DNA of 64,000 bases from a virus. The stretch lies in IMG/VR virus record IMGVR_UViG_3300029305_003918; one strand, given 5' to 3'. Every line of letters starts with the position of its first letter. Positions within the stretch are counted from its first letter, which is position 1. Below, piece after piece: positions 1 to 19,186 of the stretch. A model generated the notes under the pieces. The model had not been told where the DNA came from. It was given only the letters and a program-made list of their open reading frames with translations, and made no database searches. Made by a program: the position numbers and the translations under genes.

Positions 1-467
1 TCGCACCACTTGCGGTAAGTGGGCATCGGGGCGACCACATCACGAGCCATTGCCAGCGTGTCCCAAATTTCAACGCCCTTCGGGAAGAAGTAGCGATACT
101 TGGAGCAGGTTTCGTAACGCTGGGTCATCGTGCAGGAGCGATAGTCGAATCGGGCATTGTGGGCGATAACTGCCTTGATGTTGTACTTTTCGCAACAGTC
201 GCGGAACGCCTTGCGGATTTCGTACCACGTTGCAACCTTGATTTCGCCGCGTTCAATCTGTTCAAGATACTGCGGAATCTTGTGGGCGTAGTATGCGGAC
301 TGCATGAGTTCGGGACGGTCAAAGAAAATGTCGCGGTTGATGAAATTGAAGTTTTCGTAGGTGTTGCCGTGCTGGTCAATTACAGACCATGCGGTATTGT
401 AGTTGATGGGGCAATCCAGACCGTTGGCAGTTTCAGTATCCATCAGAATGTAGAAGTGGCGATTCAT
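1..467 (-). CDS. DnaQ-like DEDDh 3'-5' exonuclease, N-terminal part (the C-terminus runs off the left edge of the window)
   Basis: Minus-strand ATG at ~467, 9 nt after the conserved SD AAAGAGGTAA. The translation MNRHFYILMDTETANGLD... contains an Exo I motif (DTE) and an Exo II motif (AHNARFDY). The gene is not in the ORF track because it is truncated by the window edge. Confidence 0.65.
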   Translation of the reverse strand, partial: MNRHFYILMDTETANGLDCPINYNTAWSVIDQHGNTYENFNFINRDIFFDRPELMQSAYYAHKIPQYLEQIERGEIKVATWYEIRKAFRDCCEKYNIKAVIAHNARFDYRSCTMTQRYETCSKYRYFFPKGVEIWDTLAMARDVVAPMPTYRKWC

Positions 468-511
468 TTTGCATTACCTCTTTCTTGTTCTATTGCCTTT
501 CGACATTATCT

Positions 512-540
512 ATTATAGCAGATGTTGGGCTGTTTGTCAA
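512..540 (-). promoter_or_regulatory. Consensus sigma-70/sigma-A promoter for the exonuclease gene
   Basis: On the minus strand: TTGACA, then 17 bp, then TATAAT. An UP-like A-tract (AAAAAAAGTTTCAAAAAGG) lies upstream. Confidence 0.7.
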
Positions 541-570
541 TACCTTTTTGAAACTTTTTTTCGGGAAGAT

Positions 571-594
571 GGGGCAGGGTTTTACCCCTGCCCC
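571..594 (-). terminator. Intrinsic terminator hairpin after the 601-954 gene
   Basis: The palindrome GGGGCAGGG-TTTT-ACCCCTGCCCC lies directly 3' of the stop on the minus strand. Confidence 0.5.
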
Positions 595-600
595 GCAAGG

Positions 601-954
601 TCACTTCACCAGAGTGAAGTAAGCCTTGCGCTTCTCTTCCAGTCGCTGAACCTTGCCAGCTTCCACCAGCTGGCGAACCAGCGAAGCGACCTTCTGATTG
701 GAGAGCTGGGACAGCTCTTCATCAGCCTGCATCAGTTCAGACACAGTCACAGGCTGGGCGCAGGAAGCCAGCACTTCCAGCACATGGGACTTCACGCCCT
801 CATTCGCCTGCTGGGTCTTGGTGGGCTTCTTCTCCGCAGAGTTACGCTTGACCTGCTGGTCACGCAGAGCAGACAGCTTCTCACGCACTTCGGCAGACAG
901 AGCTTCGCAGTTCAGAGCAACTTCCAGAGCCTTCACATAAGTCATCTTTTCCAT
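601..954 (-). CDS. Hypothetical small protein (117 aa). It is a paralogue of the gene at 4142-4510 and has a possible winged-helix C-terminus.
   Basis: Track ORF with a consensus promoter plus SD upstream and a hairpin terminator downstream. Shares the motif SNQKVASLVRQLVE.GK..R.EEKRKAYF with the 4142-4510 product. Confidence 0.6.
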   Translation of the reverse strand: MEKMTYVKALEVALNCEALSAEVREKLSALRDQQVKRNSAEKKPTKTQQANEGVKSHVLEVLASCAQPVTVSELMQADEELSQLSNQKVASLVRQLVEAGKVQRLEEKRKAYFTLVK

Positions 955-1035
955 GATTCATTACCTCTTTCTTTCTTGTCGATTGGTGTTAGTGACTGTC
1001 GAGTGGGGCTGGCGCCTTGCCCTTTCGACATCCTT

Positions 1036-1064
1036 ATTGTACCACACCTTGCGGTGTTTGTCAA
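1036..1064 (-). promoter_or_regulatory. Promoter for the 601-954 gene
   Basis: TTGACA-N17-TACAAT with a TGG extended -10. The shared UP element and GTCGAAAGGG initial transcribed sequence are present. Confidence 0.65.
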
Positions 1065-1156
1065 GGGGTTTTTGAAACTTTTTTTTTGAGTTTTTATCCT
1101 GTGCGCTTCAGCGCCGAAGGGTTCCTCTTGCAGTTCCTTGCCCTCTTGACACTATC

Positions 1157-1185
1157 AGTATATCACATCTTGGCGGCTTTGTCAA
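1157..1185 (-). promoter_or_regulatory. Tandem promoter copy with no ORF of its own
   Basis: TTGACA-N17-TATACT with the UP element. Only ~60 nt separate it from the next promoter copy. Confidence 0.5.
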
Positions 1186-1266
1186 GGGTTTTTCAAAACT
1201 TTTTTTGAAGAAGTTTTGTCGACCAGCTTCACTCGGCATCACCTCAGTGCCCTCCTGACATTATCT

Positions 1267-1295
1267 ATTATACAGTATCAGACCCCAAATGTCTA
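1267..1295 (-). promoter_or_regulatory. Degenerate third tandem promoter copy
   Basis: TAGACA-N17-TATAAT. The same flanking CGACATTATCTATTATA context as the promoter at 512-540. Confidence 0.35.
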
Positions 1296-1344
1296 TTGAC
1301 AGATTGCACAAAGTTTCGGGAAAAAGTTTGTGCAGTTTGCCTAT

Positions 1345-1373
1345 TGACAAATTGCTCGAAAAATGGTATAATG
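1345..1373 (+). promoter_or_regulatory. Plus-strand consensus promoter convergent on (antisense to) the AbrB-like gene
   Basis: TTGACA-N17-TATAAT on the plus strand. It is preceded by a direct repeat of CTATTGACAnATTGC and an 8-bp inverted repeat TGCACAAA/TTTGTGCA. Confidence 0.55.
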
Positions 1374-1420
1374 GAAGGATACGCGGGAAAACCGGCGCCC
1401 ACGCTCGTGGGCGCGCGGGC

Positions 1421-1449
1421 GAAAAAAGAGTGACCTTGCGGTCACTCTT
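1421..1449 (-). terminator. Intrinsic terminator after the AbrB-like gene
   Basis: 9-bp stem AGAGTGACC/GGTCACTCT followed on the minus strand by TTTTTT. A second GC hairpin lies at 1394-1414. Confidence 0.6.
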
Positions 1450-1714
1450 CACAGCGGATGGGGTCATCGAGGTGGTTCACCATTTCGCAGATCAGTTCCT
1501 GCCGCTTTGCGGTGCTCAGGCTTTCCCACTCAGACTGCAGGCGGTCAAAGCTCAGATGCTCTTCATGGTAGGGCTTCATCACAAGCCCGTATTCCTTGTC
1601 CAGATACATCTCAAGGGGATCGCCCTCTTTGATGTTCAGGTTCCTGCGGATTTCCTTGGGGATAACAATGCGACCCAGTTCATCGACTCTTCTTACAATA
1701 CCAGTTGCTCTCAT
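1442..1714 (-). CDS. AbrB/SpoVT-family (swapped-hairpin) DNA-binding regulator, ~90 aa
   Basis: N-terminus MRATGIVRRVDELGRIVIPKEIRRNLNIKEGDPLEMY closely resembles AbrB/MazE N-domains. The start was chosen by SD spacing; the track's longer N-terminal extension overlaps the promoter. Confidence 0.65.
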   Translation of the reverse strand: MRATGIVRRVDELGRIVIPKEIRRNLNIKEGDPLEMYLDKEYGLVMKPYHEEHLSFDRLQSEWESLSTAKRQELICEMVNHLDDPIRCEE

Positions 1715-1744
1715 GTTCATTACCTCTTTCCTTTTGATGTACTT

Positions 1745-1773
1745 ATTATACCACATGTGAGAGGGGTTGTCAA
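1745..1773 (-). promoter_or_regulatory. Promoter for the AbrB-like gene
   Basis: TTGACA-N17(..TGG)-TATAAT. The -35 hexamer sits at the centre of the palindrome GGGGTTGTCAACCCC. Confidence 0.65.
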
Positions 1774-1781
1774 CCCCTTTC

Positions 1782-2255
1782 TCACAAATTTTTGCTTTCA
1801 GTCACAAAGTATTTTGCATCATAGCTCTGTAACAGTTTCTTAACATTCAGACTGTCCTGCTGAGTGGGACAATAGAAGTTAAACAAGAAATACTTTTCGA
1901 TGTTCACATAGTTGTAAGTGAATCCATAGTATTTGCAATCTTCAATCATCTGTTCTGCTTGTTCGGCAGGAATGGTGACTTCGACTTTCCAGAGTTTGTC
2001 TTTTCTTGCCTTTTCTTCAAAATACTTGACCACATACACACCCACAAGGTTACAGCCTGCGACAATCAGCGCCTTGGTGGCAAGAGGCAAATCGCACATC
2101 ATGTAGACAGTGACCACAGTGTAGAGTCCGAAGGCAACAGCGTTAACAATCGCGGCGACCCCTTTTCCGCATTTGATGGTTGCAATGCTCTTGACGGTCT
2201 GAATGATAACATTGGCGATGTTCAGCAGGATGAAGGTGAGAAGCAGAGTGTTCAT
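1782..2255 (-). CDS. Hypothetical membrane protein (157 aa; N-terminal transmembrane helices)
   Basis: Track ORF with hydrophobic N-terminal segments, an SD, and a consensus promoter at 2288-2316. Confidence 0.55.
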   Translation of the reverse strand: MNTLLLTFILLNIANVIIQTVKSIATIKCGKGVAAIVNAVAFGLYTVVTVYMMCDLPLATKALIVAGCNLVGVYVVKYFEEKARKDKLWKVEVTIPAEQAEQMIEDCKYYGFTYNYVNIEKYFLFNFYCPTQQDSLNVKKLLQSYDAKYFVTESKNL

Positions 2256-2287
2256 TGTGTTACTTCCTTTCGTCTTTCGTTGTACTT

Positions 2288-2316
2288 ATTATACCATAGG
2301 TTCGGCAGGTTGTCAA
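2288..2316 (-). promoter_or_regulatory. Promoter for the 1782-2255 gene
   Basis: TTGACA-N17(..TGG)-TATAAT plus the UP element. Confidence 0.65.
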
Positions 2317-2340
2317 TACCTTTTTGAAAATTTTTTTCTT

Positions 2341-2372
2341 GCAAAGGGCTGTCACACAGGACAGCCCTTTGC
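2341..2372 (-). terminator. Hairpin, possibly a terminator, after the 2352-2666 gene
   Basis: 12-bp stem GCAAAGGGCTGT/ACAGCCCTTTGC overlapping the stop codon. No clean U-tract follows; it abuts the next UP element. Confidence 0.35.
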
Positions 2373-2666
2373 ATACTTCTGATTCTTCTTGATTTTCTGT
2401 GCCATCCAGTTCGGCATGTGCAAGCCTGCGGACTTGTAAATCATGCCAGCCTGTTCAAGAGTGGGAATGTAAGCAGTCACCATGGTTTCGCTTTCCGGCA
2501 TCTTGACAATCAGCACACCAGTTTCGGACAGGCACTGCCGAGTGCCCTTGTCTCTGCGGAAACCTTCGCACACAATCTTGTCACCGAAGCCAATCTTCTG
2601 TGCAATGTACACACAGCGGTCAATGCGGTCTACCATAGCGTGTTTGGTCATTTCGATCTTCATCAT
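2352..2666 (-). CDS. Hypothetical protein (104 aa)
   Basis: Track ORF. Promoter at 2708-2736. A 12-bp-stem hairpin overlaps the stop codon. Confidence 0.55.
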   Translation of the reverse strand: MMKIEMTKHAMVDRIDRCVYIAQKIGFGDKIVCEGFRRDKGTRQCLSETGVLIVKMPESETMVTAYIPTLEQAGMIYKSAGLHMPNWMAQKIKKNQKYAKGCPV

Positions 2667-2836
2667 TTTTGTTTACCTTCCTTTCTGTTGTCCCTTTCGA
2701 CATTATTAGTATAGCACACTTTGGGCTGTTTGTCAACAGCTTTTTTCTGATTTTCCAGATTTTTTTTCATGGCATTCATTGCCGCCACTCTCATAGCGGT
2801 CTGACTTGCAACAATAGCACCGATCATGATACCCAT
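2663..2836 (-). CDS. Small hydrophobic protein (57 aa), uncertain
   Basis: SD AAGGAGTGA then ATG at ~2836. Its TGA stop overlaps the downstream gene's ATG (ATGA overlap). Its coding sequence runs across the promoter of the next gene. Confidence 0.35.
   Translation of the reverse strand: MGIMIGAIVASQTAMRVAAMNAMKKNLENQKKAVDKQPKVCYTNNVERDNRKEGKQK
2708..2736 (-). promoter_or_regulatory. Promoter for the 2352-2666 gene
   Basis: TTGACA-N17-TATACT. The spacer shares AACAGCCCAA with the promoters at 512 and 5092. Confidence 0.6.
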
Positions 2837-2865
2837 GTTTATCACTCCTTCATTTGATACATTTA

Positions 2866-2894
2866 TTATACCACAGGGGAAAGGCTTTGTCAAG
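2866..2894 (-). promoter_or_regulatory. Promoter for the 2663-2836 and 2352-2666 genes
   Basis: TTGACA-N17(..TGG)-TATAAT. The -35 is flanked by the inverted repeat GGGAAAGGC/GCCTTTTCCC. Confidence 0.6.
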
Positions 2895-3228
2895 CCTTTT
2901 CCCAAATTTCTTTTGCCATCTGATAGCGTCCGCTGTTGTCGCCATGTGCAGTGATGTAATCATGCCCAATGTGGCGACTTGCAATTTCAAATTCTTTCAA
3001 GCCGCCATCCCACAGGCACACCAGCAACTGAAGTAGATGCACAGGCAGGAACAGGAGCAGATACACAGGCCAGCTAATCTTGCAATCGCGGCGATAGTCG
3101 GGGTTGCCATCTGCAGAATAGGCACCAGCTTCGGTCAGAGAGTAGGAGCAGAGGGGACGAAGCCACTTGGCCGCAGGATTGTACTTGCCGATGTAGGTCC
3201 AGTCATTCAGAGAAATCTTCTTAGTCAT
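2890..3228 (-). CDS. Hypothetical protein (112 aa) with a hydrophobic central segment
   Basis: In-frame ATG at 3228 after an SD. The track's 199-aa version extends across the promoter and is rejected. The TGA stop is embedded in the -35 TTGACA of the next promoter. Confidence 0.55.
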   Translation of the reverse strand: MTKKISLNDWTYIGKYNPAAKWLRPLCSYSLTEAGAYSADGNPDYRRDCKISWPVYLLLFLPVHLLQLLVCLWDGGLKEFEIASRHIGHDYITAHGDNSGRYQMAKEIWEKA

Positions 3229-3265
3229 TGTAGTTACTTCCTTTCTTGTTCCTTTTGATGTACTT

Positions 3266-3294
3266 ATTATACCATGCTCAGAGGGATTTGTCAA
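3266..3294 (-). promoter_or_regulatory. Promoter for the 2890-3228 gene
   Basis: TTGACA-N17(..TGG)-TATAAT. A perfect 10-bp inverted repeat GCTCAGAGGG/CCCTCTGAGC brackets the -35. Confidence 0.65.
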
Positions 3295-3313
3295 CCCCTC
3301 TGAGCAACTTTTT

Positions 3314-3565
3314 TTAGGCATCTGCCCAGCTGATGTGCAGGCTGGATTCACACCAACGAACCTTGTAACCTGCTTCAACCATAGTGTTGTATACCTTGGA
3401 CTGGATGCGAGGGTCGGCACCGCTGAGACCATTGCTGTAATACATGGAGGTGTTGCCCTTGCTGGCATAGATCTGAATGGTGTCTTCAATCTTCTGCAGG
3501 TGCTTGTCAGCTTCGGCGGTCAGGTAGTTGGTGGTCATGGTCTTAGCTTCTTTGGCAGTCATCAT
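3314..3565 (-). CDS. Hypothetical protein (83 aa)
   Basis: Track ORF with promoter at 3616-3644 and an SD. Confidence 0.5.
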   Translation of the reverse strand: MMTAKEAKTMTTNYLTAEADKHLQKIEDTIQIYASKGNTSMYYSNGLSGADPRIQSKVYNTMVEAGYKVRWCESSLHISWADA

Positions 3566-3615
3566 AGTAGTAACTTCCTTTCTGTTGGGACTCTGTGTTC
3601 CCTTTCGATGGTTTA

Positions 3616-3644
3616 ATTATAGCAGATTCGGGATGATTTGTCAA
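3616..3644 (-). promoter_or_regulatory. Promoter for the 3314-3565 gene
   Basis: TTGACA-N17-TATAAT plus the UP element. Confidence 0.65.
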
Positions 3645-3743
3645 TACCTTTTTTGCAAGTTTTTCAAATTATTTTTTGCTGGCTGGTGCTCCTCGCGGAA
3701 ATTCGGCGAGTGGGCAAGCGCAGCGCCCGCCCACGCGCCGGCG

Positions 3744-3783
3744 AATAAAAAAAGAGTGGGGCTCAGGCTCTGAGCACCCACTC
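3744..3783 (-). terminator. Intrinsic terminator after the 3763-4020 gene
   Basis: Stem GAGTGGGGCTCAG/CTGAGCACCCACTC followed on the minus strand by TTTTTTTATT. Confidence 0.6.
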
Positions 3784-4020
3784 GGGGAGGTTCTCCCACA
3801 GTCGGGAGAGGTGGCAGGTGACCACCGTGGAGCGTTCCCACTCCACATCACCGCCATCCCAGAAGAAGCGGTAGTGGTCGATGGTGACCATGTCACCGTG
3901 GAAGGTGACCTTGACGGTCTCGTGAGAGGCCAGCCAAGAGCCCTTGCCAGTGAACAGGCAGTTGGACTGGGCTTCGAAACCGTAGTTGGCGATCAGGGTG
4001 GCAGCGATGGTGTTCTTCAT
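3763..4020 (-). CDS. Hypothetical protein (85 aa)
   Basis: ATG at 4020 after SD GAGGAGG. The start is trimmed from the track ORF, whose N-terminus overlaps the promoter. A terminator hairpin overlaps the stop. Confidence 0.5.
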   Translation of the reverse strand: MKNTIAATLIANYGFEAQSNCLFTGKGSWLASHETVKVTFHGDMVTIDHYRFFWDGGDVEWERSTVVTCHLSRLWENLPEWVLRA

Positions 4021-4065
4021 GGGGATCCTCCTCGTTGTTCGGGCTCTTGCCCTTTCGTTGATACT

Positions 4066-4094
4066 ATTATAGCACAGGATAGGCAGGTTGTCAA
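4066..4094 (-). promoter_or_regulatory. Promoter for the 3763-4020 gene
   Basis: TTGACA-N17-TATAAT. Directly abutted upstream by a 13-bp-stem hairpin. Confidence 0.65.
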
Positions 4095-4104
4095 GGGGTT
4101 TTTT

Positions 4105-4137
4105 CGGGGTGGTGAAAGTTTTTTTCACCACCCCGCG
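4105..4137 (-). terminator. Hairpin, possibly a terminator, after the 4142-4510 gene
   Basis: 13-bp stem CGGGGTGGTGAAA/TTTCACCACCCCG. The A-tract that follows doubles as the next UP element. Confidence 0.35.
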
Positions 4138-4141
4138 AGGG

Positions 4142-4510
4142 TCAGGCAAGGCGGAAATACGCCTTGCGCTTCTCCTCGATTCGGGTCAGCTTGCCCTCTT
4201 CCACAAGCTGACGGACAAGGCTTGCAACCTTCTGATTGCTCAGCTCGCCCAGCTCGGGAGCAAGGGTCTGAATCTCGCTTACGGTCTTGGCTTCCTGACC
4301 CTCAAGGGCAGTCAGGATAACCTGCTTGATGCCAACGTTGGCTTCCTGAACCTTGGTCGGCTTCTTCTCACCGCTGTTACGCTTCTCCTGCTGAGTACGC
4401 AGGGCAATCAGCTTTTCCGCGATCTCGGTGGGCAGGTTGCCGTTCTCAATGGCGTAGGTCAGGGCGGTCACGTAGGTCAGCTTCTCATTCTTCACATTGA
4501 TAGTAGTCAT
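4142..4510 (-). CDS. Hypothetical protein (122 aa), paralogue of the 601-954 product
   Basis: ATG at 4510 after AAAGAGGTAA. The C-terminal 60 aa are nearly identical in pattern to the 601-954 product. Confidence 0.6.
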   Translation of the reverse strand: MTTINVKNEKLTYVTALTYAIENGNLPTEIAEKLIALRTQQEKRNSGEKKPTKVQEANVGIKQVILTALEGQEAKTVSEIQTLAPELGELSNQKVASLVRQLVEEGKLTRIEEKRKAYFRLA

Positions 4511-4581
4511 AGCGATTACCTCTTTCTTTCCGCGCTCTTGGCGCTGTCGTTTTGTTTTGTTCCTTCCCTTGGAACATCTTA

Positions 4582-4610
4582 AGTATACCACAGGTCGGTC
4601 GGTTTGTCAA
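4582..4610 (-). promoter_or_regulatory. Promoter for the 4142-4510 gene
   Basis: TTGACA-N17(..TGG)-TATACT plus the UP element. Confidence 0.6.
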
Positions 4611-4661
4611 GCCCTTTTTGAAACTTTTTTCAAGTTTTTTTTCGGGGCTTGGGGAAGGGTA

Positions 4662-5066
4662 TCAGCCCTTCCCCTTGTCCTTGGGGGGTCGGTGGGCGGT
4701 CAGCGTAACCGAATAGGAAACGCCGTTCAGCACAAAGTCCACTTGACGCTCGGGGTTGACAACCTCGCAGTTGTCAAAGTCCTTCAATGCGTCGTGCAGG
4801 CAGTCCACCAATAGTCGCTTGTCCTCGTTGGGCTTGCGTTCTCGGGTTCGGGTCTTGCCTGCAGGGTCAACCACCTTGTGAGCCTTGGGTCGGTTCGCCT
4901 TGCGTGCTTCCTTCTCTTGCTCGGGTGGCAAGTCCCATGGGGTAGGGTTGCCCTTGTCGATCTGCTTGTCCCACCATGCCATTTCGGCTTCTTCCAGTGA
5001 GCAACCAGTCTTATCGACCATGGCGTCCAACCACTCAGGGGTAGGATACTGAAGTTCCTTAGCCAT
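4662..5066 (-). CDS. Hypothetical protein (134 aa)
   Basis: ATG at 5066 after SD AAAGGAGG. Promoter at 5092-5120. Confidence 0.5.
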   Translation of the reverse strand: MAKELQYPTPEWLDAMVDKTGCSLEEAEMAWWDKQIDKGNPTPWDLPPEQEKEARKANRPKAHKVVDPAGKTRTRERKPNEDKRLLVDCLHDALKDFDNCEVVNPERQVDFVLNGVSYSVTLTAHRPPKDKGKG

Positions 5067-5091
5067 GTTCTTGACCTCCTTTACATTAACT

Positions 5092-5120
5092 ATTATACAG
5101 CATCTTGGGCTGTTTGTCAA
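5092..5120 (-). promoter_or_regulatory. Promoter for the 4662-5066 gene
   Basis: TTGACA-N17-TATAAT. The -35 lies inside the 10-bp inverted repeat TTGTCAAGGG...CCCTTGACAA. Confidence 0.65.
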
Positions 5121-5151
5121 GGGGTTTTTACGCCCTTGACAAACTTTTTTT

Positions 5152-5721
5152 TCAATCGTTCAGATAGAAGTCAACCCACTTTTCAGCCTGTTCCAGATCA
5201 AACTCAACTTGATAGAAACGATCATTTTTCTGGAAAGTGTTCGGATGCTTGCGGATGTACTTGGAACGCAGGAAACTTTCCAAACCTTCTGCGTCAACTT
5301 CTCCGCAATCCCAAACTTTAGTAACTTCGATCGTTTTGATACCATACTTGCGATAGTAGCGCAGGTGTTCGCTCATGCGTTCTTCAATGGTTCGGGTGGT
5401 CGTGCCGACCTTTGACCAAACCAGATTGCCCTCTTCATTAAGCAGCCGCAGGAGATACACAAGCTGATTGCCCTCTACCTTGTCGCAGGAGTAAACCACG
5501 TTTGCGGTCGGCTTAAAGAAAGACTTTACCTTGTCAACAACGCCCTTGACAAACCGATCAACGATGAAATAGGCATCCTTGACAAAAGTCCAAACCGCAC
5601 GAACAACTTCATTTTCTTCCCACAGAGCAAGCATCTTTTTGAAGTTGTTGTTGCGTCCAGAAGTGGAAGTGCAAGCGCACATGCGGTCGTAGTAGAGATC
5701 CATCAGTTCCAGTGCATTCAT
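5152..5721 (-). CDS. Hypothetical protein (189 aa)
   Basis: ATG at 5721 after SD AAGGTGG. Promoter at 5779-5807. A faint GIY-YIG-like pattern is present but not claimed. Confidence 0.5.
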   Translation of the reverse strand: MNALELMDLYYDRMCACTSTSGRNNNFKKMLALWEENEVVRAVWTFVKDAYFIVDRFVKGVVDKVKSFFKPTANVVYSCDKVEGNQLVYLLRLLNEEGNLVWSKVGTTTRTIEERMSEHLRYYRKYGIKTIEVTKVWDCGEVDAEGLESFLRSKYIRKHPNTFQKNDRFYQVEFDLEQAEKWVDFYLND

Positions 5722-5778
5722 TGTGATTACCACCTTTGTCATTTTGTCTTGTCGGTGTTTCCCTCACCAACTGAGACT

Positions 5779-5807
5779 ATTATAGCATAGGTGGGCAGGA
5801 ATGTCAA
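5779..5807 (-). promoter_or_regulatory. Promoter for the 5152-5721 gene
   Basis: TTGACA-N17-TATAAT. Confidence 0.6.
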
Positions 5808-5842
5808 TAGGTTTTTGAAAAAAACTTTTTTTTCTTTTTCTG

Positions 5843-5871
5843 CAAAAAGGTATTGACATTTGATCCCTCTT
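5843..5871 (+). promoter_or_regulatory. Plus-strand consensus promoter that drives no identifiable ORF
   Basis: TTGACA-N17-TATAAT on the plus strand. It is back-to-back with the promoter at 5779-5807 and is transcribed into the 5878-6290 non-coding region. Confidence 0.6.
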
Positions 5872-5877
5872 GTAGTA

Positions 5878-6290
5878 TAATACTATCAGAGGTTGAGGGA
5901 AGCACAACCACTACGGGCACTGAGGATTCGCGATTACTCGGTGGCAAAACTCTCGCAGGTATCAAGAGCTTCCAGATCGCGGCGAACGGGTAGTGTCAGC
6001 TCGGTTAGCACGCTACGCAAGTAGAAGAGACGTTCAAATCGTCCCCCTAGCCTACGCGATCACTCCACCCCATACATCCACGGCGGTGAAATTCCGCCCG
6101 CGCAAGCGAAGACGAGAGTGGCTCTGTTTTGGGATGGGGCTTGTTTTTGTATGTTTATGCATTGTCGATGAATAATTATGCATGGCCTATGCGTGCGGGA
6201 ATACGGCTGGTGCACAGACTTGGCGCCCGTGCACCAGCCGGCCAGAGGGAAAAGAAATGCAGGATGTGTGGAGTCATCCTGCATTTCATT
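5878..6290 (+). ncRNA. Candidate structured non-coding RNA (~400 nt) driven by the plus-strand promoter at 5843-5871
   Basis: No ORF with an SD is present. Two GNRA-type tetraloop hairpins occur (CTAC-GCAA-GTAG near 6003-6014 and CGC-GCAA-GCG near 6089-6098). A T-loop-like GACG-TTCAAAT-CGTC lies at 6019-6033. Further stems are at 6072-6088 and 6197-6228. The region ends at the bidirectional hairpin at 6255-6286. Confidence 0.3.
6255..6286 (-). terminator. Intrinsic terminator after the nucleotidase and membrane-protein operon
   Basis: 12-bp stem AAATGCAGGATG/CATCCTGCATTT followed on the minus strand by CTTTTCCCTCT. Confidence 0.55.
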
Positions 6291-6292
6291 TA

Positions 6293-6532
6293 TCACTTGC
6301 TCTTACTGGAAACATTGGTCTTGAAGATAACCTGCAATGCATTGGTAGCCCAGAAGAACTGCCAGTAGTTCAGGTCAGGCAGGTTGAAGTCCAGCTTTAC
6401 TGCATTGTATCCCATCTGCACAACCCATGGCCCAGCGAAGATGACCAGCGCCAGCACAATCAGCGCCGCAATCACAGTCGCGCATCCAGAGTTATCACTA
6501 TTATAACTATTATAACTGAATCCCATAGTCAT
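6293..6532 (-). CDS. Small membrane protein (79 aa)
   Basis: Track ORF with a hydrophobic core and SD AAGAAAGAGAGG. Likely co-transcribed with the 6562-6999 gene. A strong terminator follows it. Confidence 0.5.
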   Translation of the reverse strand: MTMGFSYNSYNSDNSGCATVIAALIVLALVIFAGPWVVQMGYNAVKLDFNLPDLNYWQFFWATNALQVIFKTNVSSKSK

Positions 6533-6561
6533 TTACCTCTCTTTCTTGTTGCTCTCTGCAC

Positions 6562-6999
6562 TCAGCGAGTGAGTGCAGAGAGAGTGGCGAAGATAGTTTC
6601 GGGAGTGAACGCCTTGCCCTGTTCCCATGCGTTGCGGTTGCGCTCTTCATCATCGAAGAGAATGCCGCTCTTGCAGGTGTCCCACTTGTTCTGCCCATAG
6701 GGAACGATCTCCACCACATCCCAATGAACAGAAGGCAGATGCTTGGCGAGCCATGCGAGCTTGGCGGCTCGGACTGCTTCATCATAGGCAAGAGTGCTTT
6801 CCTTGCTACACCAGCTGATGATGCAGAGTTCGTGTCCCTGTGCCTGTGCCCTGTTGAGCATCCTTGCCAGCGTTGCCATGTGGTGCATGGGCTTTGCCAT
6901 TGCGTAGGGTGCAGGGTCGTAAGCTCGGAGCATCTGAAGCCATCCATCAACCGCATACAGGTCAGCAATCGTACCATCCATATCGAACCAGATCTTCAT
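6562..6999 (-). CDS. HAD-superfamily 5'(3')-deoxyribonucleotidase-like protein (NT5C family)
   Basis: N-terminus MKIWFDMDGTIADLY matches HAD motif I (DxDGT). A downstream DD motif is present. Size is ~145 aa. Confidence 0.6.
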   Translation of the reverse strand: MKIWFDMDGTIADLYAVDGWLQMLRAYDPAPYAMAKPMHHMATLARMLNRAQAQGHELCIISWCSKESTLAYDEAVRAAKLAWLAKHLPSVHWDVVEIVPYGQNKWDTCKSGILFDDEERNRNAWEQGKAFTPETIFATLSALTR

Positions 7000-7046
7000 T
7001 CTCATTACCTCTTTCTGTGTTTTGTCTTGTCCCTTTCGACACTATT

Positions 7047-7075
7047 AGTATAGCACGTCTTAGGGTATTTGTCAA
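7047..7075 (-). promoter_or_regulatory. Promoter for the nucleotidase and small membrane protein operon
   Basis: TTGACA-N17-TATACT plus the UP element and the GTCGAAAGGG initial transcribed sequence. Confidence 0.6.
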
Positions 7076-7190
7076 GCCTTTTCCGCAAACTTTTTTATCT
7101 TTTTTTTCGAGGGGGAAGATCGCTCTTCCCTCCTCTGTGCATAGACTTGCTTTTCTTTCCTCTTGACGAGCTTCTTAAACCTTGCGCTGT

Positions 7191-7499
7191 TCATCCTCTT
7201 GCCCTCCTCATGGCTTCGAGCTTCTGCTGGATGCGGTCGAACTTCGCCAACAGTTTGGCATAGCGGCGATCCTGCCAACCCCAGTACATCTGTGCAACAG
7301 CATCCCAGAATGCGCGGGTACTGTAATAGCACTCATGTTCCACCTTGAAAGTGGCAGGTACAGGCTTCTTTTTTTCTGCTTCCAGAAGCCTTGCCATCAC
7401 TCTGTTTGCACCTTTGCGAGTGCGGAACAGACCTACTCTGTGTGCGGCGGTGCGAGTGCGAGTACTTTCTACCTTCGAATACTTCATGAGGATAAACAT
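7191..7499 (-). CDS. Hypothetical basic protein (102 aa)
   Basis: ATG at 7499 after SD GAAAGGAG. Promoter at 7538-7566. Confidence 0.5.
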   Translation of the reverse strand: MFILMKYSKVESTRTRTAAHRVGLFRTRKGANRVMARLLEAEKKKPVPATFKVEHECYYSTRAFWDAVAQMYWGWQDRRYAKLLAKFDRIQQKLEAMRRARG

Positions 7500-7537
7500 T
7501 GCTTTGATCTCCTTTCGTTGTTCCCTTGACACTACCT

Positions 7538-7566
7538 ATTATAGCAGGTTTCAGGATGTTTGTCAA
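7538..7566 (-). promoter_or_regulatory. Promoter for the 7191-7499 gene
   Basis: TTGACA-N17-TATAAT. Confidence 0.6.
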
Positions 7567-7647
7567 TAGGTTTATACAGATTATTTTTGTTAATTATTTG
7601 TTGTGTCTCTTGTTTGTTGGCTAGCTAGGCCCGTGCTCGGTGACCTC

Positions 7648-7926
7648 TTAGATGTCGTAAGAGGTACAACCGAACATGAAGCCCACACCATCAAGCACCA
7701 CTTCATGGTAGAAGTCACCAGTGCCCAGCTCGTCGATGATGTCCTGCACCTGCTCAACCAGCTCAGGCATGGTATAGTCACGGAACTGCTCACACCAGTC
7801 ATCATCGAAGCCGATGAAGTCGATGAAATCCACACAGATTTCAGTGTCGGATTCGCGACGGATTTCAACATCGCCAGCCTGTTCGAGGGTTTCCAGCATG
7901 GTCATCAGCATTTCAGCAGTCATCAT
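7648..7926 (-). CDS. Hypothetical acidic protein (92 aa)
   Basis: Track ORF. Promoter at 7978-8006. SD GAAAGGAAG. Confidence 0.5.
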   Translation of the reverse strand: MMTAEMLMTMLETLEQAGDVEIRRESDTEICVDFIDFIGFDDDWCEQFRDYTMPELVEQVQDIIDELGTGDFYHEVVLDGVGFMFGCTSYDI

Positions 7927-7977
7927 TGTAGTTACTTCCTTTCTTTCAGCTGGGCTCTTGTCCCTTGCTGTGATTAT

Positions 7978-8006
7978 AGTATACTACAACTGACCGCGTT
8001 TGTCAA
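7978..8006 (-). promoter_or_regulatory. Promoter for the 7648-7926 gene (the right-most unit of the array)
   Basis: TTGACA-N17-TATACT plus the UP element. Confidence 0.6.
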
Positions 8007-8282
8007 TAGGTTTTTACAATTTTTTTTATTAAGTTTTAGGATAACACTTAACATGATGCATTCAATGCATTCGCGACGCTTTTGTTGCATGACAGGTTTA
8101 TTGCGCAAACTCGGGGCGTGCCGACCATGCACGCCCCGACGAGCGTTCCAGATGCTGGCAGTACTCTTGTATTTTTTTCTGGTATGTAAATCCATTCAAC
8201 ATTCACCCTCCGGGCACCCTTTCGGGAAAAAAATTATTTTGAAAGAGAAAAGGGGTTATACCTGGTCACAATTCCCACTAAA

Positions 8283-9059
8283 TCAAATTTGAAATCTGGA
8301 AGACGGAGATATATCATCAAAAGTGAGATTGGAAAGTTTAACGGTATAGGGAATTCTAATTAAAGGGATCCCTTGCTCTTTACAGTATACGTTCTTGCGC
8401 TCATCCCGCTCTTTTTGAATTTGTAATTTTTCTTCTCCGCCCCATGCTTCAACAGCCTTAAAATGCTGCTCTCCATCATATTCAATTAAATAAGATAACT
8501 GTCTATTTGAATCAAAAACCGCAAAATCAAACTTTAAACCTGTAGACAGCTCTTCAATGGAATATTGCTCTTCAAATATTACATCAAGATCTTGCAGCAT
8601 TGTCCGCACGTATAGTTCACCAGCAGATACTTGAGAACAGCCACACGATACAGTATATTTATATCCATCTCTATCGCTACCGCGCTTATATCCAGTTAAA
8701 TGGTCTTTTCGCACTGAAACCACATTGCCGCAATCACATTGACATTTAACATAAGAAGTATATCTTCCACCCGCGGTTTTATAAGGTAAATCATATTCAA
8801 TCACTGTTAATTTACCAAACCTATCTCCCATTTTTAAGGCTTGATGACCTCTACCACCTGAAATTTCTCCTGCGGCGATTCTGCAATCAACACAACCCTT
8901 TTCAACATCTTCTTTCCGCAAAATAGCTTCCTTGCCGCATTGATTGCATTTACATAGCAGTGGTGTCGAATGACTCTTCCAAGGTGTCTCTTCTTTAGAA
9001 GGACGCCGAATAACAGTTAATGTCTTAAAAGTTTGACCAATCATTTCTTGCCATTTCAT
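8283..9059 (-). CDS. Zinc-ribbon-rich protein with a C-terminal Vsr/DUF559-like (PD-(D/E)xK) endonuclease domain; possible homing endonuclease
   Basis: Several CxxC pairs. The C-terminal segment LKFDFAVFD...LIEYDGEQH...IPLIRIPY is paralogous to the 13919-14275 product. The start was chosen at a TAATG overlap with the upstream gene. Confidence 0.45.
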   Translation of the reverse strand: MKWQEMIGQTFKTLTVIRRPSKEETPWKSHSTPLLCKCNQCGKEAILRKEDVEKGCVDCRIAAGEISGGRGHQALKMGDRFGKLTVIEYDLPYKTAGGRYTSYVKCQCDCGNVVSVRKDHLTGYKRGSDRDGYKYTVSCGCSQVSAGELYVRTMLQDLDVIFEEQYSIEELSTGLKFDFAVFDSNRQLSYLIEYDGEQHFKAVEAWGGEEKLQIQKERDERKNVYCKEQGIPLIRIPYTVKLSNLTFDDISPSSRFQI

Positions 9060-9457
9060 TATAGATGACATTCTCCTCTCATATAACAATCCATGTGACA
9101 TTGACCACTCTCTGCTTCACAGGGCAGTAAACTTTTCAACACTTCTTCCACATGTCGGCTTTCCGCAAATTTCTGTAGTTCCACCCATCCATGGCGAAGC
9201 AATACTTGCTTCGCCACATAGTGGTTTTTTTCTCTTTCCCAATGCGCGCACTCTTCTTCTGTAGGATAGTCGCTCCAATCTAATTTTTCATCTGGGACTC
9301 TTTTGTACTGGCCAGTATTTACCTCTTTAAACATACTCGCTAGTACTTTATGTTTACGCTTAAAGGGATTTTCTAGTCCCATCGTCGGTGCAACCTCTCG
9401 CATAAATTTTTCTTCTGCGCGCAGAATCGTGCTACCGACGGAGTTAAGGATGAACAT
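9059..9457 (-). CDS. Hypothetical Cys/His-containing protein (132 aa)
   Basis: Track ORF in the leftward operon driven by the promoter at 9821-9849. Confidence 0.4.
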   Translation of the reverse strand: MFILNSVGSTILRAEEKFMREVAPTMGLENPFKRKHKVLASMFKEVNTGQYKRVPDEKLDWSDYPTEEECAHWEREKNHYVAKQVLLRHGWVELQKFAESRHVEEVLKSLLPCEAESGQCHMDCYMRGECHL

Positions 9458-9798
9458 CAGTGTACCCCATCCAAGTGACGAGCAATGCTGTCATCACCTT
9501 CATAAGTAATAAAATTCTCAATTGGTCCGCCGTATCGCTCACCTACAGAATAGCGGTACCAAGAATTTGGACTCACAAATACAGTAATGCTCTCCATCTT
9601 GCCACTCTGGTCACCCAACACAAACCAGAATACATCATCGTGTACAAATGCATATTCATCGATATAGCTCAATGCGTACCCCTTATCCACGATGTAATAA
9701 CTTGTGCCTTTGGTTGCTCCAATTGCAACAAACAATAGACCGACCGCAATTGCCACAATTAAAATCAGACTAATGATCTTCTGTACCATTGAAGTCAT
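9457..9798 (-). CDS. Membrane-anchored hypothetical protein (~113 aa)
   Basis: SD AAAGGAG then ATG at ~9798. The track's longer start falls inside the -10 element. A transmembrane helix is present near the N-terminus. Confidence 0.45.
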   Translation of the reverse strand: MTSMVQKIISLILIVAIAVGLLFVAIGATKGTSYYIVDKGYALSYIDEYAFVHDDVFWFVLGDQSGKMESITVFVSPNSWYRYSVGERYGGPIENFITYEGDDSIARHLDGVH

Positions 9799-9820
9799 CT
9801 CCTTTATCATTTCTATATAC

Positions 9821-9849
9821 ATTATATCAAATTTTTTTTAAATTTTCAA
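9821..9849 (-). promoter_or_regulatory. Leftward promoter for the 9798-8283 operon
   Basis: On the minus strand: TTGAAA-N17-TATAAT. It is divergent from the rightward promoter ~20 bp away. Confidence 0.5.
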
Positions 9850-9867
9850 ATGGGCGATCTTTTTTAC

Positions 9868-9896
9868 TTGACTCATGAAAATTTTTGTGGTATAAT
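9868..9896 (+). promoter_or_regulatory. Rightward promoter at the start of the late or structural module
   Basis: TTGACT-N17-TATAAT, followed by SD GAAGGAGG. Confidence 0.55.
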
Positions 9897-9913
9897 AGAG
9901 GCATAGAAGGAGG

Positions 9914-10984
9914 TTGATTATTATAATCAAGCTAGATTATACGATTGAATCTCCTCAAGAGCGAAATGAATTGGTGAAATAGATTTTAACAGAGACTCCC
10001 GACCCAAGCGAGCAATATCTGGAAATCCTTGCTGATTATTTGGTTCTTTGTATGGAGAAACAAGAGAAGAAGGAGCGAAAGATTCTCACCGACAACCGTA
10101 TGGCGACTGTCAATAAACGAGAAACATCTTTCGAGGGTCTTGTTGGCCAGTTGGAGAATGGCGAAGATGGTATATATAATTTAGTAACGAACGATAAGAA
10201 TGTAATATTTTAGCCGAAAGTAACAATTACGAAAAAAGATTTAGAAGAAATTGAGCCATTACGTCAGTTGCGCGACAGCATAGCATATTGGGAAAAGCTG
10301 TCTAAAACTGCGACTGGGCGAGCAGCCTATATTATCAAATCAACTATTATCGAATTGCGGAAGGATCAATATCTTATTAAAAACGCCTACCGCCAACCAA
10401 TTGTTGCGCGAAATATTACAAGAAATATCGGACACTATATTAAACTCCCATGGGATGAATGGGTAGATGAAAATGGAGAAATCCAGTATGAAGGTGTGTC
10501 CTTTATCAATCCCGTTGTTATTAGCACTATTTTATGCAATTATTCTAAACTAAAAGAAGGATGCTATGGCAGGTTCGAGGGTGATACCTGGTATATGATG
10601 GAAGACTTTGATAGATTAGTAGATAATTCACTTGCCGGCTATCCTTTATACCGTCGTATTGTAGAATATAAAATTGACGGGCAATCTAATGTTGATATCA
10701 AGGAAATGATTGAAAAGGAATTCGGCTTCACTCATTCGCTCGAATATATTTCTTCGTTATGGCGTAATAAAATTCCAAAGCTCATTGCCTCTTATTATAC
10801 AGATGAATGGCTGACCTGGTATTATACTGAAAAAGAATATGGGAAGTGGAAGAAATGTACTAGGTGTGGGCAAATTAAGTTAGCCCATTCAAGATTTTTT
10901 TCCATAAACAAAGGTTCAAGAGATGGATGGTATTCTTTGTGTAAGTGTTGCCGGAATGCCAAGAACAAGAAGGCAAAGGAGTAA
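9914..10984 (+). CDS. Hypothetical protein (~355 aa) with a C-terminal zinc ribbon; contains 2 in-frame TAG codons; the start codon is uncertain
   Basis: The frame of track ORF 10268-10984 continues upstream through TAGs at ~9980 and ~10211 with no TAA or TGA. It begins right after the SD GAAGGAGG with a TTG/ATT/ATA candidate start. The first in-frame ATG is at 10052. The protein ends in CTRCGQ...CKCCRN. Confidence 0.4.
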
Positions 10985-10989
10985 TGTGA

Positions 10990-12162
10990 ATGGCAGACTT
11001 AAATAAAACTTATTATTGTAAGGTCTGCGGTCGAACGATGGATACTGATCAATTTTACACATCTAATCGGTTGGATAGATACCCCGACGATGGTAAATTA
11101 CCTGAATGTAAGAAATGCATCACTCGACATGTAGACAATTGGAATCCGAAAACTTATTTATGGATTTTGGAAGAGATCAATGTTCCTTATATTGAAGAGG
11201 AATGGAATACTCTACTTGAACGTTATGGCAAGGACCGCACCAAGGTTACTGGTATGACCATCTTGGGTCGTTACCTTTCCAAAATGAAATTGAATCAATA
11301 CAAAAATTATTCATGGGAAGATACTGAAAAGATTAAGGCTGAAATGGATGCGCGGAAGCGAGACGTTATGGCTCGACAAGGCTATACTGGAGAAGAGATT
11401 GAGGAAGCTCTCGCCGCAAACAGGACACCTGAAAGACCCGCTGAACTAGAAGCAACACGAGAGGAGCCTGCTCCGATTGATGCCTTTGAGCCAGTGGGAT
11501 TCGAAGATGATCTAACTGAAGAAGATAAAACTTACTTGGCGATTAAGTGGGGCAAGACCTACAAACCGTATGAATGGGTTCAGTTAGAGAAGTATTATCA
11601 AGAGATGATGCAATCGTTCGATATTCAGACTCCATCTCATGAAGACTATTTAAAGCTTATTTGTAAAACTTCAATCAAGGCTCATCAACTGATTGACTTG
11701 GGCGACATCGAAGGTTTCCAAAAGATGTCTAAGGTTTATGACGCTTTGATGAAATCCGCTAAATTTACTGCGGTTCAGAATAAGGCTGAGGCTGGCGAGT
11801 TTGTTAACTCAATTTCTGAACTGGTTTTATTATGTGAAAAAGAAGAGGGATTTATTCCTCGTTTCTATACCGACAAGCCGAAGGATAGAGTTGATGAAAC
11901 TCTTGCGGACTTGCGTGGCTACACTAACACTCTTGTTACTGAAGAGATGAATCTTGGTAATCTTATCGAATCTGCGGTTAAGGCATTGCAGCGCGAAGCC
12001 GAACGCGAAGAAGATGAAGATATTGATGATGAAGATGAAATTATGGATATGGATTCTCTTGATGAATTGAAAGATGATGACTTTGCCGAACACTATGAAT
12101 TCTTAGAACAAGAGGCTGAAGATGATGCCTTAACGATGATGGAAATGTTAAAGGAGGAATAA
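10990..12162 (+). CDS. Hypothetical protein (390 aa) with an N-terminal zinc ribbon and an acidic C-terminus; possibly the terminase small subunit by position
   Basis: Intact track ORF with SD AAGGAG. Immediately upstream of the large terminase gene. Has a CxxC...CxxC motif and a D/E-rich tail. Confidence 0.3.
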   Translation: MADLNKTYYCKVCGRTMDTDQFYTSNRLDRYPDDGKLPECKKCITRHVDNWNPKTYLWILEEINVPYIEEEWNTLLERYGKDRTKVTGMTILGRYLSKMKLNQYKNYSWEDTEKIKAEMDARKRDVMARQGYTGEEIEEALAANRTPERPAELEATREEPAPIDAFEPVGFEDDLTEEDKTYLAIKWGKTYKPYEWVQLEKYYQEMMQSFDIQTPSHEDYLKLICKTSIKAHQLIDLGDIEGFQKMSKVYDALMKSAKFTAVQNKAEAGEFVNSISELVLLCEKEEGFIPRFYTDKPKDRVDETLADLRGYTNTLVTEEMNLGNLIESAVKALQREAEREEDEDIDDEDEIMDMDSLDELKDDDFAEHYEFLEQEAEDDALTMMEMLKEE

Positions 12163-12163
12163 T

Positions 12164-13906: not shown

Positions 13907-13918
13907 GGGAGGTCCATT

Positions 13919-14275: not shown

Positions 14276-14288
14276 GGAGGTGTGACGG

Positions 14289-15896: not shown

Positions 15897-15911
15897 GGAG
15901 GAAGTTAAATA

Positions 15912-17321: not shown

Positions 17322-17347
17322 TTAGATATCAAAGGAGGAGCTAAAAA

Positions 17348-18052: not shown

Positions 18053-18075
18053 TTCGGAAAGGAGAGAAACTAGCT

Positions 18076-19122: not shown

Positions 19123-19137
19123 TTAAATAAATATATC

Positions 19138-19166
19138 GGGGAGGGATCACTCCCTCCCCATTTTTG
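19138..19166 (+). terminator. Intrinsic terminator after the putative major capsid gene
   Basis: GGGGAGGGA-TCAC-TCCCTCCCC followed by ATTTTT. Confidence 0.6.
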
Positions 19167-19186
19167 AGTAAAAGGAGTTTTAAAAT

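Follow-up and report, generated by a model that had tools for sequence, protein, structure and literature searches.

A probable structured RNA gene with a degenerate tRNA-like module in a small-gene array of a large gut phage

Introduction

To our knowledge, tRNA mimicry by bacterial non-coding RNAs (ncRNAs) is known mainly from the Ro60-bound Y RNAs, for whose tRNA-like domain no partner is known as yet. We describe here a locus with comparable features in a 64,000-nucleotide (nt) stretch of DNA, IMG/VR record IMGVR_UViG_3300029305_003918, which comes from a large gut phage (about 170 kb) and is called the window below. Positions 5853–6149 on its plus strand are, as judged from sequence comparison, very probably a real gene for a structured ncRNA. 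A preliminary description, made from the letters of the window alone, had proposed that a consensus plus-strand promoter fires into such an RNA, and covariation in homologous phage loci supports this proposal.

Both ways of attaching the tRNA-like domain are known among the bacterial Y RNAs, through the anticodon side in YrlA and through the acceptor side in Yrn1 (PMC4201824). The 5' strand of their terminal stem carries the motif GNCGAA(N0-1)G, and the YrlA of M. smegmatis is cleaved by RNase P (PMC4201824). Ro60 homologues and putative Y RNAs have also been described in phages (PMC4201824, PMC12135203, PMC12282133). For the Y RNAs, a role as a protein-binding scaffold or decoy has been proposed, with the tRNA-like module as the part that contacts a factor recognising tRNA (PMC4201824; bioRxiv 10.1101/312249).

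The RNA described here resembles YrlA (RF02553) and the Yrn1 of D. radiodurans in its modular build, in which a conserved stem or core is joined to a tRNA-like domain (T-arm, D-arm and a U8/A14-type core) that has neither a functional anticodon nor a free CCA end. Its family shows both topologies, and YrlA RNAs, too, occur in phages. Unlike the Y RNAs, it has an additional pseudoknotted 5' core and presumably belongs to a Bacillota gut bacterium as host, and no Rsr/Ro60 gene lies next to it; the flanking genes encode a T5orf172-domain protein, a 79-amino-acid (aa) membrane protein and an NT5C-like protein. The RNA can also be compared to phage tRNA genes and pseudo-tRNAs, with which it shares a cloverleaf-like fold, the T-loop UUCAAAU, a D-loop with GG and a promoter-leader cassette that drives true tRNAs in related phages. 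It differs from a tRNA in having a GNRA tetraloop on a 4-bp stem for an anticodon arm and an acceptor that is embedded in a longer helix.

In our opinion, the best overall explanation, to which we give a probability of about 0.4, is an accessory, modular small RNA (sRNA) gene with a tRNA-like module, whose early-transcribed and stable product would serve as a tether or decoy.

A conserved RNA fold on the plus strand

The NT5C-like protein encoded near the RNA gene (6562–7005, minus strand) has thousands of homologues, and the loci compared here are the contigs that encode the closest of them (73–91% identity). The usual gene order in these contigs is the NT5C-like gene, a gene for a 71–79-aa membrane protein, a gap of 490–600 nt and a gene for a protein of 168–200 aa. 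The gap contains the same promoter and the RNA, on the strand opposite to the gene array, in loci L191/L192, L194/L195, L196/L198, L205/L206, L328 and L329; the RNA element is thus found between the same neighbours in at least six related contigs. The sequence of the proposed transcript is kept in L191, L194, L196, L205, L328 and L329, and the promoter is present in every aligned homologue of the locus. Related gut phages carry the RNA in at least five structural variants, all of which share the promoter, a 5'-terminal hairpin with a pseudoknotted purine loop, a domain made of helices P3 and P2, and a long-range closing helix that is followed by a U-tract. One close relative, L327, has no promoter and no RNA and keeps the palindromes, GC hairpin and terminator that lie downstream. 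The RNA gene is therefore an optional (accessory) cassette.

The 5' core, which spans about 90 nt, was aligned for seven distinct sequences. Its structure (P1, pseudoknot, P3 and P2; Table 1) pairs in 96.3% of the alignment cells, and seven pairs have changed on both sides, a number that was reached in two of 500 shuffles. The covariation score is 0.300, as compared to 0.036–0.089 when the structure is slid by one to three columns, where only 30–51% of the cells pair. G.U pairs are found on the plus strand only (in P2, P3 and the closing helix), and for this reason we consider the plus strand to be the functional one.

The comparison with the nearest relative, L191, gives the same picture. There are 10 substitutions between the two in 5886–6140 and none of them breaks a proposed pair: four make two compensatory pairs (5977/6059 and 5979/6057) in the helix on which the tRNA-like module is mounted, two (6064 and 6068) repair the closing helix, and the other four are in loops or at unpaired positions. 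When random substitutions were simulated, the probability of this outcome was 4e-4 if the changes were limited to transitions and 2.5e-5 if every kind of substitution was allowed. Covariation among homologous phage sequences had been named beforehand as a check on the RNA, and the check turned out in its favor, in the core helices as well as in the intact pairs between the window and L191. As judged from these comparisons, a specific plus-strand RNA fold is under selection, the architecture is modular, and the gene brings its own promoter and terminator and is optional in its presence.

Two motifs in the core, GGCAA and CAGGUAUCAAG, are conserved and apparently unpaired, and they are candidates for protein- or RNA-contact sites. 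No pairing partner was assigned to either, and the complement of the conserved GGUAUCAAG was not enriched in the window in a target search. The apical loop of P2 contains the palindrome UCGCGA (5928–5933). The P2 loops of the window, L194, L196, L205, L328 and L329 contain 6-nt palindromes centred on CG (UCGCGA, GUCGAC or AUCGAU), in which the ends change in pairs; such a palindrome could be a mini-stem, a site for kissing dimers or a site for a dimeric protein. A search of approximately 930 kb of loci with a covariance model built on the 5' core turned up no additional strong member.

Table 1. Features of the RNA locus and its downstream block, in window coordinates; variants are those of the homologues
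Feature	Position	Strand	Sequence or pairing	Remarks
Promoter, sigma-70/sigma-A consensus	−35 5853–5858; −10 5876–5881	+	TTGACA; TATAAT	17-nt spacer; 12/12 match
Proposed sRNA transcript	5888–6149	+		start placed 7 nt past the −10, end at the U-tract; about 260 nt
P1, 5'-terminal hairpin	5891–5895 with 5905–5909	+	GGUUG with CAACC	purine loop AGGGAAGCA; 100% paired; 2 pairs changed on both sides; variant AGGUG/CACCU
Pseudoknot (H-type)	5898–5903 with 5968–5973	+	GGAAGC (P1 loop) with GCUUCC	covariation; variants GGAAAC/GUUUCC (L205), GGAACA/UGUUCC (L196)
P3	5911–5917 with 5952–5958	+	CU.CGGG with CUCG.AG	encloses P2; covariation; CGGG/CUCG varies to CGAG/CUCG, CAGG/CCUG
P2 hairpin	5918–5924 with 5937–5943	+	CACUGAG with CUCGGUG	covariation; variants CACGAAG/CUUCGUG, CACCG/CGGUG, CAAGAG/CUCUUG
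Conserved motifs, apparently unpaired	5944–5948; 5956–5966	+	GGCAA; CAGGUAUCAAG	invariant or near-invariant alignment columns
Module mounting helix	5975–5983 with 6050–6061	+		minimum free energy (MFE) fold and compensatory pairs relative to L191
Acceptor core	5988–5990 with 6044–6046	+	GGG with CCC	sequence and MFE fold
U8-A9 equivalent	5991–5992	+	UA	sequence
D-arm	5993–6011	+	GUGU-CAGCUCGGUUA-GCAC	GG in loop
G26 equivalent	6012	+	G	sequence
Anticodon-like arm	6013–6024	+	CUAC-GCAA-GUAG	GCAA tetraloop on 4-bp stem
Variable region	6025–6028	+	AAGA	sequence
T-arm	6029–6043	+	GACG-UUCAAAU-CGUC	T-loop UUCAAAU
Closing helix	6063–6071 with 6131–6139	+	CUCCACCCC with GGGAUGGGG	long-range, GC; in every variant as CCCCAU(C/U)CC / GGGAUGGGG, then a U-run
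Inner stem of 3' domain (6063–6149)	6078–6081 with 6118–6121	+	CCAC with GUGG	
Inner stem of 3' domain	6082–6098	+	GGCGG-UGAAAUU-CCGCC	
Inner stem of 3' domain	6099–6108	+	CGC-GCAA-GCG	
U-rich tail	6140–6149	+		terminator-like site; read as intrinsic terminator
Tandem repeats, two, 21 nt	6141–6182		ending TTATGCA	repeat search
Operator-like stretch	6169–6182		TGAATAATTATGCA	1 mismatch from palindrome TGCATAATTATGCA
GC hairpin	6204–6240		CGGCUGGUGCAC with GUGCACCAGCCG	inverted repeat; compensatory variants in L196, L205, L327, L133
Bidirectional terminator hairpin	6254–6287			13 pairs; T-run on minus strand; conserved in all relatives

Limits and coding potential of the transcript

The sequence has the parts that an independent transcription unit would need, namely consensus −35 and −10 boxes with a 17-nt spacer at one end and a GC-rich helix followed by a U-tract at the other. 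The perfect TTGACA-N17-TATAAT promoter that had been claimed for the plus strand is indeed a 12/12 match, and so is its back-to-back partner on the minus strand (5807–5779); the plus-strand promoter opposes the array, as described. The length of the product had been put at about 400 nt. The conserved closing helix and U-tract indicate that the RNA most likely ends near 6149 and is about 260 nt long. The hairpins that had been noticed further along are present: stems placed at 6072–6088 and 6197–6228 exist at shifted positions, as the CCAC and GGCGG stems (6078–6098) and as the GC hairpin, respectively, and the strong bidirectional hairpin given as 6255–6286 is the terminator hairpin in Table 1.

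The region had also been called free of open reading frames (ORFs), and this agrees with what we find. Positions 5882–6292 contain mechanical ORFs only, of 37–79 aa, and none has a frame that is kept in the homologues. P2 differs in length by 4 and 8 nt among the homologues, and therefore no reading frame is conserved.

A small protein-coding gene could nevertheless be imagined, either in a frame M-R-E-A that starts from a TTG or GTG inside P1 or in one that gives ...LAGIKSF. The copies have in common the start motif (G/T)TG AGG GAA GCA, and GCAGGTATCAAGAGC translates as AGIKS in both the window and the first copy in the IMG/VR contig L007, with changes that look synonymous. The length differences of P2 break these frames, the LAGIKS frame has no canonical start upstream, the middle module is exchanged wholesale, and the substitutions follow base-pairing rather than codons. 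We have rejected both frames as a coding gene because they are not conserved, and this explanation is the least probable by far of those considered here. A 14-mer from the region, CTCGCAGGTATCAA, recurs in other phages (L219, L226, L250, L266 and others in IMG/VR), where it codes for the C-terminus ...RWAxLAGIK of long acidic proteins; this family is unrelated, and we take the match to be due to chance.

The tRNA-like middle module

The segment between the 5' core and the closing helix reads, in the window and in L191, as a degenerate tRNA-like cloverleaf that would be attached through its acceptor side and in which a tetraloop replaces the anticodon loop. Two GCAA-tetraloop hairpins had been reported from the region, and they correspond to the anticodon-like arm and to an inner stem of the 3' domain; the reported T-loop-like GACG-TTCAAAT-CGTC is the T-arm of this cloverleaf. 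The module lacks both an anticodon loop and a free CCA end. With its T-loop and D-loop, it could form a tRNA elbow.

The homologous module of L329 is closer to a tRNA. The Rfam tRNA model matches it from end to end with 23.5 bits (E 0.014; gathering threshold 29), and it has a 9-bp acceptor stem and a 5-bp anticodon arm with a 6-nt loop, an arm that matches the description of Yrn1 (PMC4201824).

A second kind of module, type B, is present in L194, L205 and L328 and as the second module of L329. It is permuted, with the order CUGCA-AGC-[T-arm GUGGG-UUCGAGU-CCCAC]-[capped acceptor CCC...GGG]-UA-[D-arm GGC-AAGUUGGUUAA-GCC]-G-UGCAG. This module is attached through the anticodon-like stem, which is the YrlA topology, and has equivalents of U8/A14, G15/C48, G18-G19 and G26. 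The arm order of YrlA (T-arm, capped acceptor-like stem, D-arm) is thus seen in L194, L205, L328 and L329, and the window is Yrn1-like (D-arm, short anticodon arm, T-arm). Type B and the Rfam YrlA model can be aligned from end to end, at 23.3 bits for L205 and 21.2 bits for L329, compared to a gathering threshold of 69. In this alignment the model's second stem appears as a deletion. All five substitutions among the four copies of type B are in loops, and the acceptor cap has been replaced in L205.

Type C, in L196, is an unrelated module that has no T-loop. Thus L329 has both topologies, L196 has no tRNA-like module and L327 has no RNA gene at all. We conclude from these sequences that the members of the family exchange modules on a conserved scaffold. 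The majority of these modules, though not every one, appear to be tRNA mimics, in two topologies.

Database searches

The RNA is not a member of any Rfam family. An Rfam/Infernal scan, which had been recommended as a check on the RNA, gave no match at gathering thresholds in the entire 64 kb, and so curated families, including riboswitches, ribozymes and known sRNAs, were rejected as candidates. Scans of 5700–6400 and 5960–6065 by E-value returned chance-level matches only, nothing of which was meaningful. A transfer-messenger RNA (tmRNA) was likewise rejected, as neither ARAGORN nor Rfam reports one in the window. The window RNA lacks what would identify a tRNA gene: an ARAGORN prediction or at least 29 bits with RF00005, a 7-nt anticodon loop, and a 7-bp acceptor with a free 3' end.

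BLAST searches with the region and with window positions 1–20000 had no match in the phage database DNA, and an exact-protein look-up had no record of the two flanking proteins. In the IMG/VR contigs no relatives of the T5orf172 protein were found, and the exact T-arm pattern had no match. The pattern GCAGGNATCAARAGCTNCNAGA occurs in the L007 contig only, and the pattern CAGNNGNTGAGGGAAGCA has 51 matches, all of them chance matches except L007. For CTCGCAGGTATCAA, those of the matches that were listed are due to chance, including the acidic-protein family mentioned above.

Possible functions

The mechanism that we favor would begin with transcription by the host sigma-A RNA polymerase from the consensus early promoter. 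The 5' hairpin and the 3' helix would make the RNA stable, the conserved 5' core, with its pseudoknot to the GCUUCC about 70 nt downstream, would bind one partner, and the tRNA-like module would present a mimic of the tRNA elbow or core to a tRNA-recognising factor of the host or phage. In this way the RNA would serve as a tether or a decoy, in a manner similar to the Y RNAs YrlA and Yrn1. That the RNA is a scaffold or decoy built on tRNA mimicry is a tentative suggestion. More speculative still is the idea that it represents a new class, a pseudoknotted scaffold that carries interchangeable tRNA-mimic modules (acceptor side, anticodon side, both or none) and that would be a Ro60-independent counterpart of the Y RNAs, tethering or decoying a tRNA-recognising host factor early in infection, such as RNase P, a defence nuclease that attacks tRNAs, or an enzyme that modifies tRNAs or controls their quality. 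The exchange of tRNA-like modules of both topologies on a different conserved scaffold, with no Ro60 gene among the window ORFs scanned, would provide a second, independent handle on the purpose of tRNA-elbow mimics, and it could also reveal how a phage counters host processes or defences that centre on tRNA.

Several observations weigh against the tether or decoy explanation or the data behind it. The homologue set is small, about seven distinct and closely related sequences, and the structure was derived in part from the same sequences. The RNA proper (5888–6150) is no more stable than its shuffles (z = +0.83); the value for 5888–6295 (z = −2.5) is owed to the 3' GC hairpin and terminator. 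Folding energy by itself does not tell the RNA proper from shuffles. The support for it is comparative and comes from covariation in the homologues. In the window the module is in a degenerate state, its acceptor core having 3 bp and its T stem 4 bp, and neither Rfam nor ARAGORN finds it: RF00005 does not match the window copy, nor does RF02553 at E ≤ 10, and ARAGORN predicts no tRNA or tmRNA gene in the window and no gene in nine loci. The variant in L196 is devoid of a T-loop module, and tRNA mimicry therefore cannot be a function common to all members. The GNCGAA(N)G motif of the Y RNAs was not found, and the aligned position in type B reads CAUCCCAUAC; the P2 loops UCGCGA, GUCGAC and AUCGAU do not fit the motif and are located in a hairpin loop. 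Finally, there is no Rsr/TROVE protein among the 28 window ORFs that were scanned against Pfam. The last two observations, together with bit scores far below the gathering threshold, which were obtained with relatives only, and the second stem that is deleted in the YrlA alignment, also count against the possibility of a true Ro60/Rsr-dependent Y RNA, whose Rsr would be encoded by the host or by a part of the phage outside the window. The tRNA-like domains in both Y-RNA topologies, the sub-threshold YrlA match and the precedent of phage-encoded Ro60 homologues and putative phage Y RNAs (PMC4201824, PMC12135203, PMC12282133) would agree with it, and we think it improbable.

A tether or decoy is not the only use that can be imagined for a tRNA-like module on such a scaffold. 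The module could instead mark the RNA for cleavage by RNase P or RNase Z, which would free the approximately 85-nt 5' core as the active, base-pairing or protein-binding sRNA. The promoter and leader of the RNA drive true tRNA genes in related phages, the L329 module with its 9-bp acceptor stem is nearly a tRNA, and RNase P cuts the YrlA of M. smegmatis (PMC4201824). However, the window acceptor core has 3 bp and is interrupted by an internal loop, and by the 7-bp rule (PMC4201824) RNase P would be expected to cut it poorly. Type B modules are joined through the anticodon stem and have capped acceptors, and type C has no tRNA-like module to cleave; we regard such processing as unlikely. The locus might also be a decaying tRNA cassette or an insulator, with an RNA product that has no function. 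Any selection would then act on convergent transcription, as a protection of the T5orf172 gene against read-through. The highly variable module content, a gene that can be absent, the degenerate state of the window module and 'empty' promoter units in the array (such as the one from 1185 to 1064) are what one would expect from this explanation, and it would make the RNA a curiosity only. The compensatory and never disruptive substitutions in close relatives and the four covarying core helices argue for selection on RNA structure and not just on transcription, and we do not rate this explanation above that of a processed RNA.

The layout of the neighbouring genes suggests yet another role, and one of those listed in the preliminary description, as an antisense RNA. 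The SPbeta phage has type I toxin-antitoxin systems with antisense RNAs, SR4/bsrG and SR6/yonT. As in these systems, a convergent sRNA faces a small membrane-protein gene across a shared bidirectional terminator in an SPbeta-related phage. The RNA could therefore be an antisense or antitoxin-like regulator of the convergent minus-strand operon for the NT5C-like and 79-aa single-transmembrane (TM) proteins, acting on stability or termination through the overlap of 3' ends and terminators, especially if there is read-through to 6287. The plus-strand G.U pairs of the GC hairpin and the analogous blocks with a plus-strand promoter of their own, at window 1344–1372 and in L326, are in line with this possibility. 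However, the conserved, covarying part of the RNA (5888–6149) overlaps no minus-strand gene or mRNA, overlap being possible at the terminators only, and the analogous blocks flank an AbrB-like gene and a soluble acidic protein rather than toxins. L327 retains the gene for the membrane protein (71 aa) in the absence of the sRNA gene, and for this reason an obligatory type I pair was set aside. An antisense role thus finds a little backing in the layout and appears to be no more likely than processing or decay; a ribozyme, which had also been listed, finds none. A part in an anti-defence system, likewise on that list, may be played by the RNA, as may that of a decoy. The tether or decoy explanation remains the one that we prefer.

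The downstream block

Positions 6150–6290 form a separate conserved block that consists of the palindrome, the covarying GC hairpin and the bidirectional terminator, and it is kept in L327 without the RNA gene. The block may serve the array as a tandem terminator or as an insulator; alternatively, it may be a short antisense unit in its own right. There are four perfect copies of the palindrome TGCATAATTATGCA in L003 (1430, 2464, 5563 and 5584) and three copies in the gap of L327. All copies are intergenic and near terminators. The palindrome is likely to be a binding site for a phage regulator, and this putative site would be outside the sRNA.

Two relatives, L194 and L205, show a G.U pair in the GC hairpin when it is read on the plus strand. 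The minus strand would have C.A at this place, which hints that the hairpin acts in a plus-strand RNA. Its position also fits a second terminator of the minus-strand operon. The terminator hairpin at the end of the block would end the minus-strand operon for the NT5C-like and membrane proteins and would also stop plus-strand read-through.

A second plus-strand consensus promoter that opposes the array, at 1344–1372, leads straight into a GC hairpin and terminator block (1344–1450). This promoter is convergent with an AbrB/SpoVT-like gene (1442–1756, minus strand), and the same design occurs in the L326 gap at 3960–4317. Both designs resemble the 6183–6290 part of the block described here, and blocks of this kind may be a recurrent short antisense or insulator unit.

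Promoters, leaders and neighbouring genes

The first 9 kb or so of the window (1–9100) is a minus-strand array of small genes with about 15 near-consensus promoters that have A-tracts upstream. Each of these promoters serves one small gene, and the majority are followed by another common leader, aTaGTGTCGAAAGGGACAAG. The GC content is 48–50% over 1–8000 and 29–42% in the remaining window. A promoter scan of 4500–8000 found 10 promoter-like sites, compared to 2.8 ± 1.5 in shuffles. One unit on the minus strand is 'empty': a near-consensus promoter (1157–1185) is followed by about 65 nt of non-coding sequence and then by the next promoter (1036–1064).

The T5orf172-domain protein gene (5152–5742, minus strand; Pfam E 8.4e-06) is divergent from the sRNA gene. 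A 70-nt inverted repeat (5755–5824 and 5836–5905) contains both promoters and their leaders, that is, the first 25 nt or so of the transcripts, and because of it we consider the promoter of the RNA to be an inverted duplicate of the promoter of the T5orf172 gene. Relatives have proteins of unequal length (168–200 aa) in the place of the T5orf172 protein, and this slot may vary between phages. On the other side of the RNA gene, the 79-aa protein with its single TM segment and the NT5C-like protein are both encoded on the minus strand. The similarity of the terminase groups the phage with Geobacillus E3, Enterococcus EF1/H1, phAss-1 and SPbeta-like phages, which points to a Bacillota host, in line with the sigma-A consensus promoters.

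In Bacillus and its phages, some mRNAs are protected by 5'-terminal stabilisers, such as the SP82 polypurine stabiliser, STAB-SD and 5' hairpins. The RNA gene resembles these in having a hairpin within about 3 nt of the predicted 5' end with a purine run similar to a Shine-Dalgarno sequence, GAGGGAAG, an element that recurs at many early promoters. It is unlike them in that the purine loop also takes part in a pseudoknot and that the element precedes tRNAs and ncRNAs in addition to mRNAs. The promoter-proximal leader TATAAT-N10-G-NTG-AGGGAA(A/G)C is present in the window at 5886–5902 (plus strand) and 5774–5758 (minus strand) and in loci L074–L190, and it forms a hairpin that shows a GAGGGAA loop a few nt from the predicted 5' end. 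A metagenome scan gave at least 123 matches to the leader, and 53 of the 123 listed have a correctly spaced TTGAC −35 box; the leader-bearing contigs are from gut and rumen. Properly spaced units precede protein genes, true tRNA genes (L074, L082, L099, L130 and L145) and short non-coding units. The GAGGGAA leader may stabilise early phage transcripts in general at their 5' end or serve as a recognition element in them, and it is possibly a common trait of early transcription in Bacillota gut phages.

The L007 contig has two short sRNA paralogues of about 110 and 90 nt, at 5229–4960 and 6973–6720 on the minus strand and about 1.7 kb apart. Both have the same 5' leader and a GCAA-loop terminator that is followed by UUUGUUUCGGGAUG, and similar short units are present in L075 and L141.

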